Shown: in pieces, positions 17,358 through 25,220 of the stretch
How positions within the stretch are numbered: the first letter of the stretch is position 1
Layout of the letters: each line of letters opens with the position of its first letter
From: an uncultured Gemmatimonadaceae bacterium
GTDB taxonomy: Bacteria > Gemmatimonadota > Gemmatimonadetes > Gemmatimonadales > Gemmatimonadaceae
NCBI GenBank assembly: GCA_963740355.1
Contig: CAVUDW010000003.1
Location: forward strand, 2,368,001 to 2,432,000
Reading direction: 5' to 3'
DNA: 64,000 nt
Translations under genes and position numbers: made by a program
Notes under the pieces: model-generated
Database searches by the model: none
Told to the model about the DNA's origin: nothing
What the model saw: only the letters and a program-made list of their open reading frames with translations

Positions 17358-19640
17358 TCAGCGCAGGATTGCGCCCCACAACAGTGGCTGGGTGTTCATG
17401 CTCTGCCCCCGATATTGCGGACGGAAGCCGAACAGGATCGCGTGACCGCGGCCGACCGTGACATCGACCATCGCCGCCTTGCCATTCAACTTCGAGCCGC
17501 CAAGCAACCAGCCGGAGAGGAGTGGGTCGCCAGTCGCTGGATACGACGCGACCGCCACCGCGCGTGTCGCGTCGGTGATCTCGAAGGTCGGGCTGTCCTC
17601 GAACCAGGCCGCTGGTACCGGTGCCGTCATGCGTGACACGATCGGGCTGGCACTGTTGAGCGTGATGGAGAGCAGTGAGCCCGGTGCGTAGAAGTCCGTG
17701 TTCTTCACACCAGTGAGCACGTTCTTCACCGGCAACTCGAGCGTCTCGATCGCATAGTCGCTGGCATCGTTGAACGTGATCAACGTGCCACCATCGTTCA
17801 CGAACGCCTTCAGGCTGGCAGCACCCGCATCACCGAGTCCACCGCGCAGCGAGTCAGGGTAGGGTGCACCAAGGCCACGCCGCAGCTGGTTGGCATTCTG
17901 GTCGGGCAGGATGATCACATCGAATCGCGCCTTCAGGTTGCCCGCCCGCATCTCGGCGTCGAGTACCGTGCGATACGGAATCTTGTTGACGTCGAACATC
18001 CAGCGCGTCCATCCCTCATCCATCGAGGCGTTGTAGCTGCGATAGATCGCGATCCGCTTCGGCGACTTCCCGCTCAAACCCTTCACGCTGAACGTGGGCT
18101 CCGGCATCGCCGCACTCAGTGCACCCATCGCCGGCGCCGCGCCGGTGACGGCATTCACCTGCACGCCGAACAACAGCGGCAGCGTGTGCGCCGTCACGTC
18201 GTACGGTCGCTTCGGCGGACCACCCGGATACTCGCTCAGGTTTGGATACTGCTGGCGCTCCAGCAGCGCCTTCGCATACGATCCGAACGGCTGCATCGTG
18301 GGCACGATGTAACTGCCAGCCGGCACCGACTCGTACACTTCGACCTGCCCGTGCTGCAGCGTCCAGATCAGGCGCTGCAATGCCTGAGGATCTTTCTGGT
18401 CGCGCGGAATCACGAACGCCGACGGCACCTCGGTGGTCGTCCACGGATGATCCGCAGCCATCGCACGATCCGCGATCGAGAGATAACTCTCCAGCCACTG
18501 CCGACGATCGCGCGCCACCGACGCCAGCATCGCCCATGTCGCGCTGGCCTGATAGGCCACGATGTCACCGTACGTCCAGCGACCGCCGGGCCAGCGCGCC
18601 GGATAGTTCCACGATGTCACTCGCGCGTCGTACCCACGCGCGGTGCCGAGTTGCGTGAACGGCATGTCGATCGGCGACGCGAGCCGCGCACTCGCGGTCT
18701 CGGTGAGGATGCGCACGCCGTGATGGTTGAGCGAATACTGCCGCGCCGGCGACCACTGATCGTACGACGCATTCGTCGCCACACCCGTCTTCCCTTCGGC
18801 AATCATGCGCCATCCCATGCTCATGCCCAGCGCATTGGTGCTGGCGGTCAGCACGGGATCGATGTTCGGCTCCACCGGATCCATGTACGGCGGAATGAAG
18901 ATGCGACCACCGTTCGCGCCCTGCTGGTGAATGTCGTTCACGATCGCAGGAGTCCACGGCGAGTACAGCGAGTCGAGCACCATCCGCTGCTCCACCTGCG
19001 TGAACGCATACCAGTCGCGGTTGTTGTCGTGCCCCGTGTAGTGATGGTAGATCTCCGGCGGTTGCGTCCCTTCCGCCGGTGTGCCGAGCGTGCTGCGATA
19101 CCAATCTCCAACGATGTCCACACCGTCAGGGTTCTGGCTCGGCACCAGCATGATGATCGTTTCCTTCAGGATCTCGCGGGATTCGGGCGTGTCACTGCGG
19201 ATCAATCGATCGGCGATCACCAGGGGTGATGAGAATCCGCCGACTTCCGTCGAGTGAATGCTCGATGTGATGAGGACGATGTTGCGCCCCTCGTTCAGCA
19301 GCTGCTCGCGATTGGCGCTGCCACGCTTTCGCGGATCGAGCAACTGCTGCTGCACCTGACGGAAGTGCTCGAGGTTGGCCAGGTTCGTCGAGTCACTGAT
19401 GAACGCCACTATGAACGGCCGGCCCAGCGTCGTCTTGCCAAGGGTGCGAACCTGCACATTGGGACTCGCCGCATCGAGTGCCGTGAAATAGTCGGTGACC
19501 TGCTTCCACGACGGGAGTTTCCGGTCGGTGCCGGGCTCGAAGCCAAGGATGCTGGCAGGGGTGGGCACGGCGGGGCGCTGTGCATGCACTGCGGCAGCAG
19601 CGGACAACGCCACCGCCACGGTGAAGAGACGACGCATCAC
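17358..19640 (-). CDS. M14 family zinc carboxypeptidase with a C-terminal GATase-like domain
   Basis: Signal peptide; IHSTE (HxxE), QNPDG, DNNRD, DIHQ; MDEGWTRW. Confidence 0.9.
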   Translation of the reverse strand: MMRRLFTVAVALSAAAAVHAQRPAVPTPASILGFEPGTDRKLPSWKQVTDYFTALDAASPNVQVRTLGKTTLGRPFIVAFISDSTNLANLEHFRQVQQQLLDPRKRGSANREQLLNEGRNIVLITSSIHSTEVGGFSSPLVIADRLIRSDTPESREILKETIIMLVPSQNPDGVDIVGDWYRSTLGTPAEGTQPPEIYHHYTGHDNNRDWYAFTQVEQRMVLDSLYSPWTPAIVNDIHQQGANGGRIFIPPYMDPVEPNIDPVLTASTNALGMSMGWRMIAEGKTGVATNASYDQWSPARQYSLNHHGVRILTETASARLASPIDMPFTQLGTARGYDARVTSWNYPARWPGGRWTYGDIVAYQASATWAMLASVARDRRQWLESYLSIADRAMAADHPWTTTEVPSAFVIPRDQKDPQALQRLIWTLQHGQVEVYESVPAGSYIVPTMQPFGSYAKALLERQQYPNLSEYPGGPPKRPYDVTAHTLPLLFGVQVNAVTGAAPAMGALSAAMPEPTFSVKGLSGKSPKRIAIYRSYNASMDEGWTRWMFDVNKIPYRTVLDAEMRAGNLKARFDVIILPDQNANQLRRGLGAPYPDSLRGGLGDAGAASLKAFVNDGGTLITFNDASDYAIETLELPVKNVLTGVKNTDFYAPGSLLSITLNSASPIVSRMTAPVPAAWFEDSPTFEITDATRAVAVASYPATGDPLLSGWLLGGSKLNGKAAMVDVTVGRGHAILFGFRPQYRGQSMNTQPLLWGAILR

Positions 19641-19728
19641 GGCAGACTCCGGATTGTGGGGGCGTAGTACATGTAGTTCGGCACGCGTGGCTGGCGCCGC
19701 TACGCGCCACGACCTGCCAGTGCTGGAG

Positions 19729-20712
19729 TCAGCGCGATTCGACCGTGAAGCCGCTCGCGAAGCGCGTGAAGCTGACCGAGTCCGTCATGCGGAGCGCAGC
19801 CCAGGTCTGCATCGACATCCGGAAACTGTGCACGACGATCTCATTTGTCCCGTCACCGTCGACGTCCAGCACCGAGACCAGTTCGTGCAGCGGGTATGAG
19901 AGATCGCGCAGCTTGCCGCTGCGGGTCTTTCCGTTGGCTCGCACCAGCACCACGCGCTCGATCGTCTCCGGCGTGATCTCCAGCGGGCGAATCGTGATCA
20001 TCGCCCGGAAGTCGCCAAAACAGCCGCGCAGGACACTCACCGCTTCCTTGGGCGCCGGCACGAAGCCAGCGATCGCAGCGGCAATCGCCGGCTCGTCCGC
20101 GGGGGGACAGGGTGTGGCCGATCCGGTACGCGGCGGAACGGGTGGTGCGCCACGCCATTCAGCCGGGATGGCGCGCTCGGTGCTATCGAGGGCAGCCAGG
20201 TCCAGGCGCGCGATGATGCGCCGCCCGCTCAGTCGAAGCGCGGTCACGCGCGCTTGGGCGGCGCCGGCGCGCGGGTGCACCGTGATTAGCATCCCTGGCT
20301 GAATCGGACTCCGCGCGGCCAGCATGCGGTCGAACGCGGCGCGGGCTGCATCGGTGGTGCCGACCCCGCCGTCGATGCGACCGATGTCGACCGACGGTGC
20401 GCTGTCGATCATGCGCACCATGAACCAGCGCTGTGTGCGGGGCGCAAATACCGCGCGTTCAGCGAGGCTCGCCGCGTCGGCATCGAGCGCCGTATTGGGC
20501 GCGGCCGGGAGCAAGGCGAGCATCATCGTCATGCTGTCCGGAGGCGTGGAACGGATCGAATCCGGCCGTTCATCCCCCGTGGTGTCGGGAGGGGTGGCGC
20601 TGTCTGCGGCCACAGCCACGGTGCGCGGCGGCTCAGCGTCGCGGGGCTTGCACCCCCCTGCCACGCCAAACGCCAATACCGCACCGACCCCGAGCAGCCG
20701 TCCCTGACGCAT
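19729..20712 (-). CDS. Hypothetical lipoprotein
   Basis: Lipobox AGGC; one FG-GAP-like DVDGDGTNEI motif; directly follows the FHA gene. Confidence 0.7.
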   Translation of the reverse strand: MRQGRLLGVGAVLAFGVAGGCKPRDAEPPRTVAVAADSATPPDTTGDERPDSIRSTPPDSMTMMLALLPAAPNTALDADAASLAERAVFAPRTQRWFMVRMIDSAPSVDIGRIDGGVGTTDAARAAFDRMLAARSPIQPGMLITVHPRAGAAQARVTALRLSGRRIIARLDLAALDSTERAIPAEWRGAPPVPPRTGSATPCPPADEPAIAAAIAGFVPAPKEAVSVLRGCFGDFRAMITIRPLEITPETIERVVLVRANGKTRSGKLRDLSYPLHELVSVLDVDGDGTNEIVVHSFRMSMQTWAALRMTDSVSFTRFASGFTVESR

Positions 20713-21534
20713 TCAGTCGAGGAACTTCAGGACCGACGCCACCAGCCCGTACCGCCAGGCCAGCACACCGGCCAGCACGAGCAGGATCAGCAGCGCGAGC
20801 CCCGTGATCGCCTTCTGCCAGAGCTTCCGCTGGCGGACCTCACGCTCCTCGCGACGCTCCACCACACCGAGCTTGCCGGTTGGGACGCGTCGAGTGTAGT
20901 GGTCGGTCCGCATCGCATGCGCCGTCTCGAGCGCCCGCCGCACCGGCGGATCCACCGTGAACCAGAGCACTGTGCGGCCAATGCCAATCGCATCGCCATC
21001 GCTCAGCCGCGTCGGCTTCTCGACCTTGGCGCCATTTAAAAGCATCAGGGCGCCGATTTCGGGCAGCAGGCGGAGGCTGTCGCCATCCCGCTCCAACCGC
21101 GCGTGCACCCGCGAAACTTCCGGTTCCTGAAGAAGCACGGTACAGCCCGCTTCGCGGCCGATCGTGGTCGCGTCCTGACCGAGGGCGTACACCCGATCCC
21201 GCCGCGCGTCACGGAGCCAACCAGAGCCCGTTCCGGTCACCGATGGCGGGGCCTCCGACTCGAACCGGAACTCGTGGGCACCCATGACGATCACGTCGCC
21301 GGGCTGGAGGCGATGAGGCTCCCCGGTCAGTAATTCGCCATTGACCAGAATCTCCGCCTCGGCACTGGCTCGACTGATCGTCGGTACGCCGTAGCTGCCG
21401 TCACTCATGACGAGCGCATGCAGCCGCAGCAGGTCGGGTTCGCGGATCCGCCACGTGGCTTCGACGCCGCTTCCGATGGACAGGACGCCCAAACCGAGCG
21501 GTCGAGTCTGGTCGCCGAAGATGAGATGGGCCAT
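20713..21534 (-). CDS. Tandem FHA-domain protein with a C-terminal TM helix
   Basis: FHA2 IGRE...VSRVHA...LNG...LSDGDAIGIG; degenerate FHA1 IGSG...LRLHA...VNG...LQPGDVIVMG; terminal hydrophobic helix. Confidence 0.85.
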   Translation of the reverse strand: MAHLIFGDQTRPLGLGVLSIGSGVEATWRIREPDLLRLHALVMSDGSYGVPTISRASAEAEILVNGELLTGEPHRLQPGDVIVMGAHEFRFESEAPPSVTGTGSGWLRDARRDRVYALGQDATTIGREAGCTVLLQEPEVSRVHARLERDGDSLRLLPEIGALMLLNGAKVEKPTRLSDGDAIGIGRTVLWFTVDPPVRRALETAHAMRTDHYTRRVPTGKLGVVERREEREVRQRKLWQKAITGLALLILLVLAGVLAWRYGLVASVLKFLD

Positions 21535-21655: not shown

Positions 21656-22963
21656 ATGAGTGACGAGACCCTGAGCTCAGCTGCCATGCCCTCGACGAGC
21701 CCGACGGAGGCCTACGCCTCCGACCTGGGCCGTTTGCAGCGCACCGCACCGCTTGGCCCAGCGGATGATGCGTGGCTCGTCCTTGCCCATTCCCTGACCC
21801 GCTTCGGCGCCCTCAGCGCGGCGGATTTGAATGAGATCGCGCCGGCATCAGCGGACCTCCTCGCAGTAAGCGCGATGGCGGCTGGGCTGGCTGCCCAGTC
21901 GAGCGTGCTGCGGGCGGCACGGGCCCTTCGAGCCCTGCCAGACGGGTACACCGAGCTGCCCAGTGGCTACGACGCCGTGACGGAGTTGGTGATTGCGACG
22001 CAGGCCGTGGCCGAAGAGCAGGAACTGGCTGGTGGATTCGGGCTGGCGTACGCAACCTTGCGCGCGTTGCGCCAGGCGTTTTCCTCGCGCGTCTCACCGC
22101 GCATCGACGGCAATGTCGTGGCGCAGATCGGCCGTGCCGCGCGCCAGCTGGGTGCCGTCGATGTCGCGCGCGAGATGTACGAGGACGCGATGCTCATCGG
22201 CTATGAATGCGAGGCGCTCGATGTGGTCGCCCGTGCATTGCTCGGCCTCGGTGTCATTGCACTCACACGCGGCAACTATCCCGCGGCGCGCGAACAGTTC
22301 GAGCGCGCGCTGCTGAACGCCGATCGAGCCAACGATCCCGAACTGATCCGCTCCGCGCATCACGGCCTGCTCAACTGTGGCTTTGCCTCGGGCGACCTCG
22401 ACTCGGCGATGGTGCACGGGTGGAATGTGCTGCGGCTCTGCATCGCCCCGGATTCGCGAGCGGAAGCGCTCATGAACATGGGCGAAATCTGCCGACTCAC
22501 CGGTGAGCATGACGCCGCCATGCGCGTCTACGCGGTCGCCATGGAATGGACCTCGCAGCGCCGTGTTCGCCTGCATGCGCTGAGTGCCGCGCTACAGTCC
22601 GCCGTCACGATCAATCGTCTGTCGGATGCGCGCCGGTATCTGGCCGAGCTCACCGAGCTCATGCCCACCGTGCCCGATCCCTATACGCAAGCGAACATCG
22701 GAGTCGAAGTCGCAGATTCGCTCCACCGCCTTGGCGAGTCGACTGCTGCCGCGGCGATGCTCGATTCAGCTCTCTCACTGGCAAGGGAACACGCGTTCCA
22801 CGAACTGGTTCATCGCGCGGAGCAAGCTGCAAGTGTGTGGCACGTCGCACCTGTGCCGGACCCACTCGAGCAGAAGCATTCGCGCCGGAAGCGCCCGTAC
22901 AGGTCCGAGCACTTCCGGATGGTCCTGCGGTCACTGAATGGCCTGACCGCTGCGTCGCTCTGA
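21656..22963 (+). CDS. Cytoplasmic tetratricopeptide-repeat protein without a recognisable HTH
   Basis: TPR-like units QIGRAARQLG..AREMY, GLGVIALTRGNYPAAREQF, ALMNMGEICRLTGEHDAA; no signal peptide. Confidence 0.85.
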   Translation: MSDETLSSAAMPSTSPTEAYASDLGRLQRTAPLGPADDAWLVLAHSLTRFGALSAADLNEIAPASADLLAVSAMAAGLAAQSSVLRAARALRALPDGYTELPSGYDAVTELVIATQAVAEEQELAGGFGLAYATLRALRQAFSSRVSPRIDGNVVAQIGRAARQLGAVDVAREMYEDAMLIGYECEALDVVARALLGLGVIALTRGNYPAAREQFERALLNADRANDPELIRSAHHGLLNCGFASGDLDSAMVHGWNVLRLCIAPDSRAEALMNMGEICRLTGEHDAAMRVYAVAMEWTSQRRVRLHALSAALQSAVTINRLSDARRYLAELTELMPTVPDPYTQANIGVEVADSLHRLGESTAAAAMLDSALSLAREHAFHELVHRAEQAASVWHVAPVPDPLEQKHSRRKRPYRSEHFRMVLRSLNGLTAASL

Positions 22964-22969
22964 CGCGGA

Positions 22970-23176
22970 CTAGTGCCAGGGGATCGTCGGCACTGCGCCG
23001 TTCTGCACGTCGAACCAGGGGATGGTCGGGACGCGCTTGGTCGTGTCGACATCGGCGCTCACCTGCTTCTCCGAATTCTCGACCAGCGGTGATGTCGGAT
23101 CAGCTGCGCAGGCCGAGAGGCCGGCGGCGAGGATCAGCAGAGCGGCGAGTGCGGTGCGGTGGCGGAGCGTCGTCAT
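22970..23176 (-). CDS. 68-aa lipoprotein-signal propeptide with two C-terminal VPTIPW copies
   Basis: AGGA RBS 7 nt before ATG 23176; MTTLRHRTALAALLILAAGLSAC lipobox; ends TKRVPTIPWFDVQNGAVPTIPWH-stop. Confidence 0.8.
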   Translation of the reverse strand: MTTLRHRTALAALLILAAGLSACAADPTSPLVENSEKQVSADVDTTKRVPTIPWFDVQNGAVPTIPWH

Positions 23177-23270
23177 GGCAGTGTCCTGAGTTGGGTGTAC
23201 ATCAAACCTGCCGATGCCGGCTCTGATCTCCGCACACGGTGCGGGCACCACCCTCACCGGATGGGAAACC

Positions 23271-24215
23271 GTGGGATTTCCGTTGGTCGACGACAGCAGG
23301 AACAACCAGAGCCGCCCTCTGCAACGGGTGGTCGCAGCCCTGGTACGCGATCGTCGCGACCTGGCGCGACTGCAGGAGGCACTGCGCCCGTCCGCAGGTG
23401 CGCCACCTGCCGGCGTGCTGCATGCATTCGAGCGCGTCGATCGACTCGATGCAGCGCTGCAGCGCACACACTTCGATGTGTTGGTCATCGAACCGACCGA
23501 TGCCGATGGTCATTCGACCGAGGAGATGATCCGGAGCATTCGCGCCCGTTTTCCGCGTCTCTCGGTGCTTGGCCACGTCGTGATGCGCCCCGGGATCTCG
23601 TCCTCGGTGCTTTCTTTCGCGCGCGCCGGTGTACACGAACTGATCGTCTCAGGTATCGACGACACTGCGATGGTGCTTCGCGTCGCGCTGCAACGCGCCT
23701 CGCAGCGCTGCCTGGCGGAGGAGGTGTACGCGGAGGTGAGCTCATCACTGCCGCGTGAAGCCGCCCGACTCGTGCGTTATTGCCTCGAGCATGCGAGCGA
23801 GTCGCCAACGATCGATGACATATCACGCGCACTAGGTGTGCATCGACGCACGCTCGTCAATCGCATGCAGAATGCGATGCTCCCACCACCGAGCGAACTC
23901 TGGGCCTGGTCTCGCGTGCTGCTGGCAGCGCGGTACCTCGAAATGCCAGGACGCTCGGTGGAGTGGGTGGCTCACACAGTCGGATACCCATCGGCGAACG
24001 CGCTGCGCAACGCACTCAAGCGCTACACTGGACTGGTGCCGAGTGAGTTGCGAGAGGACGACGGTTTCGCCCGTGCGACGCTCGCCTTCCGCGGTGCACT
24101 GCTGGCCACGTCGCGTCACGTGGGACCACTGATGATGCCGGTCGGTCAGCGAACGCGCCTGCAACGAAGTGGTGCTGCATCCGACCCGCTCGCGGGCGTC
24201 AGACAGGCGGTGTAG
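23271..24215 (+). CDS. AraC-family transcriptional regulator with a degenerate receiver-like N-domain (start uncertain, 23214-23328)
   Basis: IDDISRALGVHRRTL and SVEWVAHTVGYPSANALRNALKRYTGLVPSE (double HTH); N-terminal FDVLVIEP...AGVHELIV. Confidence 0.85.
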   Translation: MGFPLVDDSRNNQSRPLQRVVAALVRDRRDLARLQEALRPSAGAPPAGVLHAFERVDRLDAALQRTHFDVLVIEPTDADGHSTEEMIRSIRARFPRLSVLGHVVMRPGISSSVLSFARAGVHELIVSGIDDTAMVLRVALQRASQRCLAEEVYAEVSSSLPREAARLVRYCLEHASESPTIDDISRALGVHRRTLVNRMQNAMLPPPSELWAWSRVLLAARYLEMPGRSVEWVAHTVGYPSANALRNALKRYTGLVPSELREDDGFARATLAFRGALLATSRHVGPLMMPVGQRTRLQRSGAASDPLAGVRQAV

Positions 24216-24767: not shown

Positions 24768-25220
24768 TCAGGGGATCGGTCGCACACTGTCGACCGTGAT
24801 ATACCCACCGCCATCGTTCTCAGGAGTGCCGTACGTCAGTGTTCTCGGATAGCCGAGCTTGTCGTCATAAGTCACTTGAAGCCGTTCAGGCCGCTGGCGA
24901 ATCTCTTCCGCGACCTGCTTGAAGATGCTGTCCACCGGCTGACGCCACGTCAGCGGCTCGGATGCACCAGTGCCGACATCCACGATCGCCGTGACCTGTC
25001 CATTCCGGACGGTGACGCGCTTCGTTCCTGTGAATTCAGGCAAACAGAAGCACAAAACGGTGCTATTAAAGCTATAATTGACCAGCCTGGCGTCAGACCA
25101 CTTCTTCTGCGCGCTCTGCAGGTCGAGCCGCTGACCGAACGGAGACGTCGGATCGGAGGTGCAGGCCGCGGCAACGGCGACCGCCACCAGTCCAAGACTC
25201 GCCAGTCGATGTCTGCCCAT
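24768..25220 (-). CDS. Lipoprotein, DUF6174-like
   Basis: Lipobox AAAC; W...Y.F...CFC...V.V.NG; YDDKLGYP. Confidence 0.7.
   Translation of the reverse strand: MGRHRLASLGLVAVAVAAACTSDPTSPFGQRLDLQSAQKKWSDARLVNYSFNSTVLCFCLPEFTGTKRVTVRNGQVTAIVDVGTGASEPLTWRQPVDSIFKQVAEEIRQRPERLQVTYDDKLGYPRTLTYGTPENDGGGYITVDSVRPIP

Follow-up and report, generated by a model that had tools for sequence, protein, structure and literature searches.

A lipoprotein-type propeptide with repeated VPTIPW units in a conserved three-gene cassette of Gemmatimonadota, and its possible role in Rap-Phr-like peptide signalling

Results

The propeptide gene and its immediate neighbours

The DNA analysed here is a stretch of 64,000 nucleotides (hereafter the window; G000:C3:2368001-2432000) from the genome of an uncultured member of the Gemmatimonadaceae, which comprises 5.45 Mb with a G+C content of 65%. 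This report concerns a small gene on the minus strand of the window, which encodes a predicted lipoprotein precursor with two copies of the sequence VPTIPW, and the two genes that flank it, one for a tetratricopeptide repeat (TPR) protein and one for a regulator with an AraC-type helix-turn-helix (HTH) domain (Table 1). The propeptide gene is convergent with the TPR gene, their stop codons lying 6 bp apart, and divergent from the AraC-type gene. It is single-copy in the genome, and PTIPW occurs just three times in a six-frame translation of the 5.45 Mb, with two of the occurrences in the propeptide gene itself. The propeptide displayed no family match in Pfam or NCBIfam.

Table 1. Positions of the propeptide gene, its parts and the adjoining elements in the window
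Feature	Position	Strand	Basis or remark
Propeptide gene, 68 aa + stop: signal peptide, lipobox Cys23, linker, two VPTIPW units	22970..23176	-	Sequence and orthologues
Lipoprotein-type signal peptide, residues 1-22, with lipobox L-S-A-C	23108..23176	-	Cys23 at 23108-23110; read from sequence
D-P-T-S-P box, 3-7 residues past Cys23	23087..23101	-	Sequence
K47-R48 directly before unit 1, possible processing site	23033..23038	-	Sequence
Unit 1, VPTIPW, then F55	23015..23032	-	Sequence, codon comparison
Unit 2, VPTIPW, then H68 and stop	22976..22993	-	Sequence, codon comparison
AGGA ribosome-binding site, 7 nt ahead of ATG	23184..23187	-	AGGACA invariant in 15/15 loci
Near-invariant 41-nt block, candidate operator of divergent promoter region	23230..23270	.	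15 genus loci
CheY-like pseudo-receiver + AraC-type HTH regulator	23328..24215	+	Likely GTG start 23328; 333-aa open reading frame opens 23214
435-aa cytoplasmic TPR protein, candidate peptide receptor, convergent with propeptide gene	21656..22963	+	Pfam TPR, AlphaFold2 model

Translation from the start codon at 23176 to the stop codon at 22970-22972 gives a signal-like segment that ends in L-S-A-C23, a polar linker, the dibasic pair K47-R48, VPTIPW followed by Phe, a six-residue spacer, and VPTIPW followed by His. At the DNA level the two units differ at two third positions alone, both of them synonymous (GTC/GTG and ACC/ACG). A first-pass annotation of the window had described this open reading frame (ORF), with its translation, start, stop and AGGA sequence, and had placed the two units, with their synonymous differences, at the positions given in Table 1; the sequence and a mechanically generated ORF list agree with it on each of these points. 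The same is true of its statements that KR precedes the first unit only, that nothing but His68 and the stop follows the second, and that the frame is buried in a longer call, which in the ORF list is a 172-aa open frame at 22970-23488. Its description of the gene as overlooked holds for that ORF list and not beyond it, given that orthologues had already been called as 'hypothetical protein' by other pipelines.

The assignment of a lipoprotein-type signal, also proposed in that annotation, follows a rule that was applied by eye and by regular expression, namely a positively charged n-region, a hydrophobic h-region and a lipobox of the form [LVI][ASTVI][GAS]-C with the Cys at approximately residue 15-35. 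The n-region of the propeptide contains R5 and R7, the hydrophobic core spans A9-L20, and the lipobox is L-S-A-C23. By this rule the 68-aa protein would be a bacterial lipoprotein precursor and a substrate of the Sec pathway and signal peptidase II; consistent with this, two matches to LspA (signal peptidase II, PF01252) above the cut-off are encoded in the host genome.

The D-P-T-S-P box that follows Cys23 is not a general feature of the lipoproteins of this genome, a possibility that was ruled out when x(1-5)-T-[AS]-P after the Cys was found in 7 of 275 lipobox candidates genome-wide, and in 11 of 275 under a second pattern. Two genes away from the propeptide gene, a DUF6174 lipoprotein (24768-25220, minus strand) carries T-S-D-P-T-S-P-F after its Cys, compared with A-A-D-P-T-S-P-L in the propeptide. 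Judged from sequence, the box common to these two proteins could be a sorting or processing signal.

Orthologues and selection on the repeated units

Related genomes were examined by a six-frame protein search of 61 genomes, including 19 of the same genus and 41 of other genera (an unpublished genome, G026, is among the 41 and was counted only in the propeptide and TPR searches of that set). Full-length, stop-free matches to the propeptide were found in 17 of the 19 same-genus genomes, with E values of 4e-24 to 1e-13, and the ORF is present in all 18 loci that were read. The 41 genomes of other genera gave no convincing match, the best (E = 9e-4) being confined to the signal-peptide part. In an alignment of 16 sequences M1, R5, R7, L20, C23 and the first P-T-x-P-W are invariant, as are AGGACA and the ATG in the 15 aligned loci. 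A profile search of 5.8 billion proteins retrieved 65 metagenomic clusters of 42-115 aa, all of them unnamed or labelled 'hypothetical protein', and two of these clusters are labelled Gemmatimonadaceae or Gemmatimonadota by source.

The number of units is variable. Among 66 sequences, 4 contain one unit, 37 contain two, 13 contain three, 7 contain four and 5 contain five, and the propeptide of one same-genus genome has six. The cores in these 66 sequences are PTIPW (96 occurrences), PTLPW (62), PTVPW (6) and PTQPW, PTTPW and PAIPW (2 each), and the period between neighbouring units is 11-13 residues for 86 of the 104 pairs. Comparison of 57 within-gene unit pairs, which are not mutually independent, gave 342 codon comparisons over the six-codon core, of which 224 were identical, 114 synonymous and 4 non-synonymous. 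Spacers of equal length, on the other hand, displayed 25 synonymous versus 29 non-synonymous differences. Since the copies match in protein while their codons differ, and since the spacers drift, each hexapeptide has been kept by selection on the peptide and is not the product of recent duplication; every (x)PT[IL]PW unit is under purifying selection. The first-pass annotation had suggested selection on the peptide, and a multi-copy precursor, from the two units of the window alone. Both suggestions are borne out by the excess of synonymous changes in the cores and by the range of one to six units across orthologues, with constraint concentrated on the C-terminal units. It had also named a lack of conservation of frame and motif in relatives as an outcome that would speak against the gene, and conservation is what was found, in the 17 same-genus genomes and in the 65 clusters.

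The cassette within the genus

Beyond the three genes, the outer neighbours on one side are genes for an FHA protein, a 327-aa protein and an M14 peptidase, and on the other side genes for a 151-aa protein, the DUF6174 lipoprotein and an HTH protein, followed by the suf operon. The entire stretch is syntenic in all eight genus genomes examined, so that synteny alone says little about the propeptide gene and joint absence is the informative observation. Of the 19 genus genomes, the 17 with the propeptide gene are also those with the TPR gene, and the two genes, as judged from the coordinates, adjoin each other in every one of them. From G003 (~90% complete) and G014 (~96% complete) the propeptide, TPR and AraC-type genes are all missing, while the FHA gene is kept and abuts the HTH and suf genes in G003 and the DUF6174 gene in G014. 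This joint absence indicates that the three genes behave as one accessory unit.

The cassette across Gemmatimonadota

In five other genera, a distant homologue of the TPR protein (25-33% identity) is followed by an AraC homologue, with a small lipobox ORF on the opposite strand between the two genes. A profile search of 301 Gemmatimonadota genomes located the TPR family in 25; beside the genome of the window, these are 19 of the 69 genomes of family f1, 2 of the 6 of f4 and 3 of the 47 of f7. No member was found in the 125 genomes of f2 or in the genomes sampled from the remaining families. At each of the 22 further loci, an AraC homologue adjoins the TPR gene and one small lipobox ORF is convergent to it. 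In total, the distant TPR loci number 27 and come from 26 genomes outside the genus; all of them have an adjacent AraC gene and exactly one convergent lipobox ORF, the stop codon of which is at -37 to +84 nt from the TPR stop. These ORFs were tabulated with a generic lipobox pattern, and when the same detection was applied to 3000 random 710-nt segments of the window's genome, 269 (9%) were positive. At the two f4 loci (L054 and L057) the order differs, with the AraC gene upstream of the TPR gene; the small gene keeps its convergent orientation towards the TPR gene there and encodes an acidic propeptide with a ..NNN ending.

The distant propeptides have a mature part of 20-70 residues that is mostly low-complexity linker. 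Inspection of the tables by eye showed that ~26 of 28 cassette families (window included) have a [PI]-[TML]-[AGS]-x box, resembling P-T-[AGS]-P, no further than ~6 residues from the Cys, and that most families have a Lys or Arg 0-2 residues ahead of the C-terminal motif. The C-termini themselves are lineage-specific. Some consist of tandem heptads, namely DYVNPLG (five copies), VDFVNPN/H (two to three), VNFVNPN (four), NVVNPNT (three) and HTIGSGN (three); one distant type ends in two ATEVVPWF units, and others have single endings such as ..DSIPWN, ..DTLPWN, ..DVRPWG and ..DVKPWG. One genome of 7.5 Mb, G321, contains two full cassettes (L041 and L059), whose propeptides end in ..CCVQPWY and ..TQPWWLC and whose TPR proteins fall into different clades of a tree that was made by a quick method and is descriptive only. 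As kinship alone will cluster peptide types, this tree was not used as evidence of co-evolution.

When the window and the five distant loci, each with several kilobases of flanking DNA, were compared all-against-all, the TPR and AraC genes alone were common to them, and no protease, transporter or modifying enzyme was shared between these six regions. These data establish a three-gene module that is conserved across Gemmatimonadota and carries lineage-specific C-terminal peptides. Moreover, it is very probable that the propeptide ORF is a real gene that is functionally tied to both of its neighbours.

The TPR protein

The sequence of the TPR protein gives no indication of a signal peptide, a hydrophobic segment or a membrane segment, and Pfam and NCBIfam gave no domain beyond TPR families and no enzyme domain. 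The family comprises 383 clusters at 50% identity (E<=1e-30), nearly all of 400-450 aa, and the nearest Atlas clusters are mostly from Gemmatimonadota where the phylum is known. At the sequence level the protein did not fall into the Rap, Rgg, NprR, PlcR, PrgX or AimR subfamilies.

The AlphaFold2 model (predicted local distance difference test score, pLDDT, 89.9) is all-helical, with ~9 hairpins after a short N-terminal helical part. In a Foldseek search the top match was the peptide-binding TPR domain of LGN/Pins (E = 4e-7; template modelling score, TM, 0.55-0.59 on the query), with MalT domain III and the Rap protein of pLS20 at lower ranks. A second fold search, independent of Foldseek, gave Z-scores of 24.4 for Pins, 24.2 for LGN and 21.5 for SprE, followed by RapI (21.3, with 312 residues aligned over residues 31-401 of the model), MalT domain III (18.8), RapH-Spo0F (18.4), Rap of pLS20 (18.2), phage Rap with peptide (18.1), NprR-NprX (16.8), AimR (14.9) and PlcR-PapR (14.7); for helical repeats, scores of this kind show common architecture and not homology. 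As modelled, the protein has the form of a cytoplasmic TPR-type solenoid of the peptide-binding kind. Prediction of a complex between the TPR protein and propeptide residues 24-68 returned a score of 0.01, which in the absence of control runs is evidence neither way.

The pseudo-receiver/AraC regulator and the intergenic DNA

The regulator matches HTH_18 (PF12833; E = 2.2e-13) with its C-terminal, AraC-type double HTH. In its AlphaFold2 model (pLDDT 89.7) a (beta-alpha)5 domain is followed by a helical DNA-binding domain, and Foldseek aligned the model with the full-length response regulators FixJ, StyR and RcsB, with the isolated receivers of HupR and NtrX (TM ~0.8 on the target) and with AraC DNA-binding domains (TM 0.77-0.88 on the target). 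In the protein of the window, Glu occupies the acceptor position after strand 3; in 24 homologues the residue there is E, D, A, S, T or P, and no receiver residue is invariant among them, so that the phospho-acceptor Asp, the acidic pair and the Lys are not conserved. A variable acceptor, together with the lack of any invariant receiver residue, marks the domain as a pseudo-receiver. No kinase gene adjoins the regulator gene in the window. The sequence suggests that the regulator may receive its input by protein contact.

Between the divergent propeptide and regulator genes there is a 41-nt block that is near-totally invariant across the 15 genus loci, at all three codon positions, and that has variable flanks; in 2 of the 15 loci a 1-nt indel is located just beside it. 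The overlap of this block with the first 38 codons of the 333-aa regulator ORF (23214-23327), the nearby indel and the finding that distant AraC homologues start at the equivalent of 23328 all argue that these 38 codons are probably non-coding. Within the block are two 13-nt direct half-sites (23255-23267 and 23235-23247), 20 bp apart and identical at 8 of 13 positions, and a 6-3-6 palindrome at 23230-23244. The usual sites of AraC-family proteins are direct repeats two helical turns apart, and the adjacent regulator may bind the candidate operator at 23230-23270. Across the cassettes, tandem half-sites with an offset of 19-23 bp, 45-100 nt upstream of the propeptide start, were found at p<0.05 relative to shuffled sequences in 9 of 28 loci, with ~1.4 expected.

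No Rfam RNA family was detected in 22800-23500. A scan of 22700-23500 for sigma-70 promoters and terminators, which is uninformative for this phylum, detected nothing that resembles a promoter; two weak terminator-like sites lie within the leader of the AraC-type gene. Two sequencing runs cover part of the stretch. A freshwater metatranscriptome contains two 151-nt contigs at a depth of 2, from which neither strand nor RNA origin can be distinguished; one (23124-23274) spans the 5' end of the propeptide gene and the 41-nt block and the other (23319-23467) spans the start of the AraC-type gene. One of the contigs is 95-99% identical to the window, and the other 90-95%. They amount at most to a hint of expression.

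Discussion

A model for the cassette

The arrangement of the three genes is most readily understood if the small gene encodes the propeptide of a Rap-Phr-like signalling cassette, the other members of which are the TPR protein and the pseudo-receiver/AraC regulator. A probability of roughly 0.55 is assigned to this interpretation. In such a cassette Sec would export the precursor, which would receive its lipid at Cys23 and undergo cleavage by signal peptidase II. Further proteolysis of the tethered form, perhaps after K47-R48 and between the units, would then free several copies of a PTIPW-containing peptide of six to eight residues. Uptake of the peptide might proceed via an Opp-type system, and four SBP_bac_5 (Opp/Dpp-type) binding proteins are encoded in the genome. 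Inside the cell the peptide would bind the concave groove of the TPR protein, which would alter the activity of the phosphorylation-independent receiver/AraC regulator, much as Rap proteins act with response regulators. Feedback would result from action of the regulator on the conserved direct repeats that separate its gene from the propeptide gene.

The likeness to Rap-Phr systems of Bacillus, plasmids and phages has several parts. In both, a small gene for an exported propeptide adjoins one for an all-TPR protein of the cytoplasm, itself devoid of a DNA-binding domain; in the present case a predicted secreted propeptide stands beside the candidate receptor in 17 of 17 genus genomes and at 27 of 27 distant loci. 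In both, a protein of the response-regulator type is the likely target, the functional peptide (here a predicted one) is at the C-terminus of the propeptide, specificity is lineage-specific and several cassettes can occur in one genome. RapI, RapH and phage Rap are, in addition, among the best bacterial fold matches of the TPR model. The differences are equally clear. No sequence-level homology was detected in Pfam, NCBIfam or the PDB, and the host belongs to a two-membrane phylum and not to the Firmicutes. The propeptide gene here runs towards the TPR gene and separates it from the regulator gene, a lipobox is present in every propeptide, the pseudo-receiver/AraC partner is encoded inside the cassette, and the TPR protein shows no sign of phosphatase activity.

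According to PMC9765709, internally repeated propeptides occur in a minority of cases in the Firmicute AimR, NprR, PlcR and Rap subfamilies, 211 of 2,734 RRNPPA propeptides with a predicted route are signal peptidase II substrates, and RRNPPA signalling is treated as a trait of Firmicutes and of their phages and plasmids. The distribution of the present genes is different, as the source labels of the orthologues name Gemmatimonadaceae or Gemmatimonadota and the nearest Atlas clusters are mostly Gemmatimonadota. Membership of RRNPP is unsupported by sequence or by taxonomy, and the claim made here is that the cassette works like such a system, not that it belongs to it. The PlcR-PapR, NprR-NprX and AimR-AimP systems likewise have a peptide-binding TPR receptor that controls transcription and an adjacent propeptide gene. 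They differ from the cassette, however, in that DNA binding is here on a separate AraC-family protein, and their fold scores are weaker (16.8, 14.9 and 14.7 for NprR, AimR and PlcR, respectively).

Some features of the proposed precursor have counterparts in other systems. The enterococcal pheromones cCF10 and cAD1 are derived from lipoprotein precursors, are re-imported and are read in the cytoplasm by PrgX-type receptors; those peptides, however, lie within the signal peptide of an ordinary lipoprotein, whereas the units described here are in the mature C-terminus of a dedicated mini-lipoprotein. Yeast alpha-factor is made as several identical copies per secreted precursor, with a dibasic site before the first copy. 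It depends on eukaryotic secretion and Kex2, and its receptor type is unrelated; in the propeptide, KR stands before the first copy only. In the case of MucE and the C-terminal motifs of outer-membrane proteins, the aromatic end of a small envelope protein signals to DegS/AlgW, but the receptor there is a periplasmic PDZ protease and the conserved partners of the present propeptide are cytoplasmic. A full-text search of the available literature covering the core motifs, RRNPP surveys, Gemmatimonas TPR/AraC proteins and peptide pheromones of diderm bacteria found no paper that describes this cassette. The cassette is best viewed as a variation on known signalling by peptides and TPR receptors, placed in a two-membrane host, with a multi-copy propeptide of lipoprotein type and with receptor and regulator as separate proteins.

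Several observations weigh against a signalling role. Translation, lipidation, cleavage, release and uptake of the peptide are all inferred. A peptide of an estimated ~800 Da would need two passages through the outer membrane, and the cassette has no linked transporter. The TPR protein matches generic or designed TPR sequences only (Pfam, NCBIfam and PDB sequences) and displays no relation to RRNPP proteins, and the matches to its helical-repeat fold are unspecific, the eukaryotic proteins LGN and Pins outscoring Rap. The direct repeat upstream of the propeptide gene is individually significant at no more than the nine loci mentioned above, and the window, with p ~0.7, is not one of them. Several distant members are free of repeats and have Cys pairs, which could mean a folded or modified product. 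Finally, the phyletic counts all come from related genomes and overstate independence. The idea of a pheromone precursor, put forward in the first-pass annotation, gains strong, if indirect, support from the three-gene module with its lineage-specific peptides, which that annotation did not include; release, passage across the outer membrane and receptor binding belong to the model outlined above, and the tethering to membrane or vesicles that the annotation considered would be a possible further property of the precursor.

Alternative explanations

The propeptide might itself be the output of the cassette. It would then be a regulated envelope lipoprotein, held by its lipid in the inner or outer membrane, the Pro/Trp units of which serve as linear motifs (a surface brush, an adhesin-like ligand or periplasmic docking), and the TPR and AraC proteins would control its expression on some other cue. 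A lipobox in 28 of 28 cassette types and a candidate operator upstream of the propeptide gene would suit this role, the P-T-[AGS]-P box by the Cys could act in sorting or docking, and pressure from phages or predators could drive the rapid divergence of exposed peptides. The small mature part with its low-complexity linker would, however, be very short for a structural protein, constraint is seen on the short C-terminal units alone while the spacers drift, and the strict one-to-one pairing with a TPR protein, seen twice over in G321, is typical of a receptor and its ligand and unexpected for a mere target. An output of this kind is considered unlikely. Rather improbable, too, is a cell-autonomous reporter, in which periplasmic proteases cut the tethered precursor and the re-imported fragments gauge envelope proteolysis or stress and not cell density. 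The evidence on export, the TPR protein and the regulator is the same for this idea as for intercellular signalling, a lipid tether would keep the precursor periplasmic in a two-membrane cell, and the cassette has no linked system for export across the outer membrane; lineage-specific peptides, and two types of them in G321, are nevertheless hard to explain if the rate of cleavage is all that matters, and the amplification of copies is better suited to a diffusible signal.

The combination of several conserved cores with drifting spacers is also typical of precursors of ribosomally synthesized and post-translationally modified peptides (RiPPs), and the repeated cores of the propeptide are of this form. 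The cores would be modified, for example at Trp or at the C-terminal Asn or His, by enzymes encoded elsewhere, to give an antibiotic, a metal binder or a modified signal. Some distant members have Cys pairs, and bufferins are an example of RiPP precursors with Sec signals. Against this, no local biosynthetic cluster was found, the TPR and AraC genes being all that the window and the five distant loci share; the neighbours in the window are suf, FHA, M14 peptidase and DUF6174 genes, of which the M14 and FHA genes persist in the cassette-less G014; and the chemistry of the core changes wholly between lineages (PW, VNPN, GSGN, NNN), unlike what one dedicated enzyme would require. A RiPP is accordingly placed slightly below the reporter in likelihood. 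That the propeptide ORF is no gene and arose by chance, antisense to regulatory DNA in the TPR-AraC interval, could be argued from its position within a 172-aa open frame of the sort that is typical of GC-rich DNA and from its lack of a Pfam or NCBIfam family, but the conservation of its start, ribosome-binding site, lipobox and units, the strong synonymous excess and the occurrence of lipobox ORFs at 27 of 27 distant loci against a background of 9% leave this explanation with next to no weight.

Implications for two-membrane bacteria

Two-membrane bacteria are thought to depend on small-molecule signals, and if the proposed Rap-Phr-like function is correct, communication by imported peptides and TPR receptors would extend to them. 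It would also raise the matter of how short peptides exit and re-enter two-membrane cells, and a lipid-anchored, tandem-copy precursor would be an unusual means of dosing or localising a signal. Tentatively, and with less than even confidence, it is proposed that Gemmatimonadota have a peptide quorum-sensing family of their own, which is Rap-Phr-like but arose outside the Firmicutes, and which combines a lipid-tethered multi-copy propeptide, lineage-specific peptides and a dedicated TPR receptor; the peptide types would then be pherotypes that are private among soil relatives. Gemmatimonadota are an abundant and poorly studied phylum of soil, and cultured Gemmatimonadaceae would gain a testable signal-receptor pair in the form of the heptapeptides, the TPR protein, the regulator and the 41-nt candidate operator.

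Further observations on the window and the genome

The M14, 327-aa and FHA genes next to the cassette were considered as its processing partners and rejected, being missing from the five distant loci, with the FHA and M14 genes staying in G014 where the cassette is lost. The three form a co-directional trio at 17358-21534 on the minus strand, encoding an M14 carboxypeptidase-like protein of 760 aa, the 327-aa protein, for which no family is known, and the FHA protein, the C-terminal part of which includes a membrane segment, and they are 59-92% identical across the genus.

Small lipobox ORFs of 66-99 aa with low-complexity or tandem repeats are also found on G000:C2, near 1133011 (minus strand), 379902 (plus strand) and 671503 (plus strand). 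As far as inspected, these repeat-bearing ORFs have no adjoining TPR/AraC pair. One of them contains four copies of an 11-residue unit, M-A-D-S-A-K-G-A-M-G-A.

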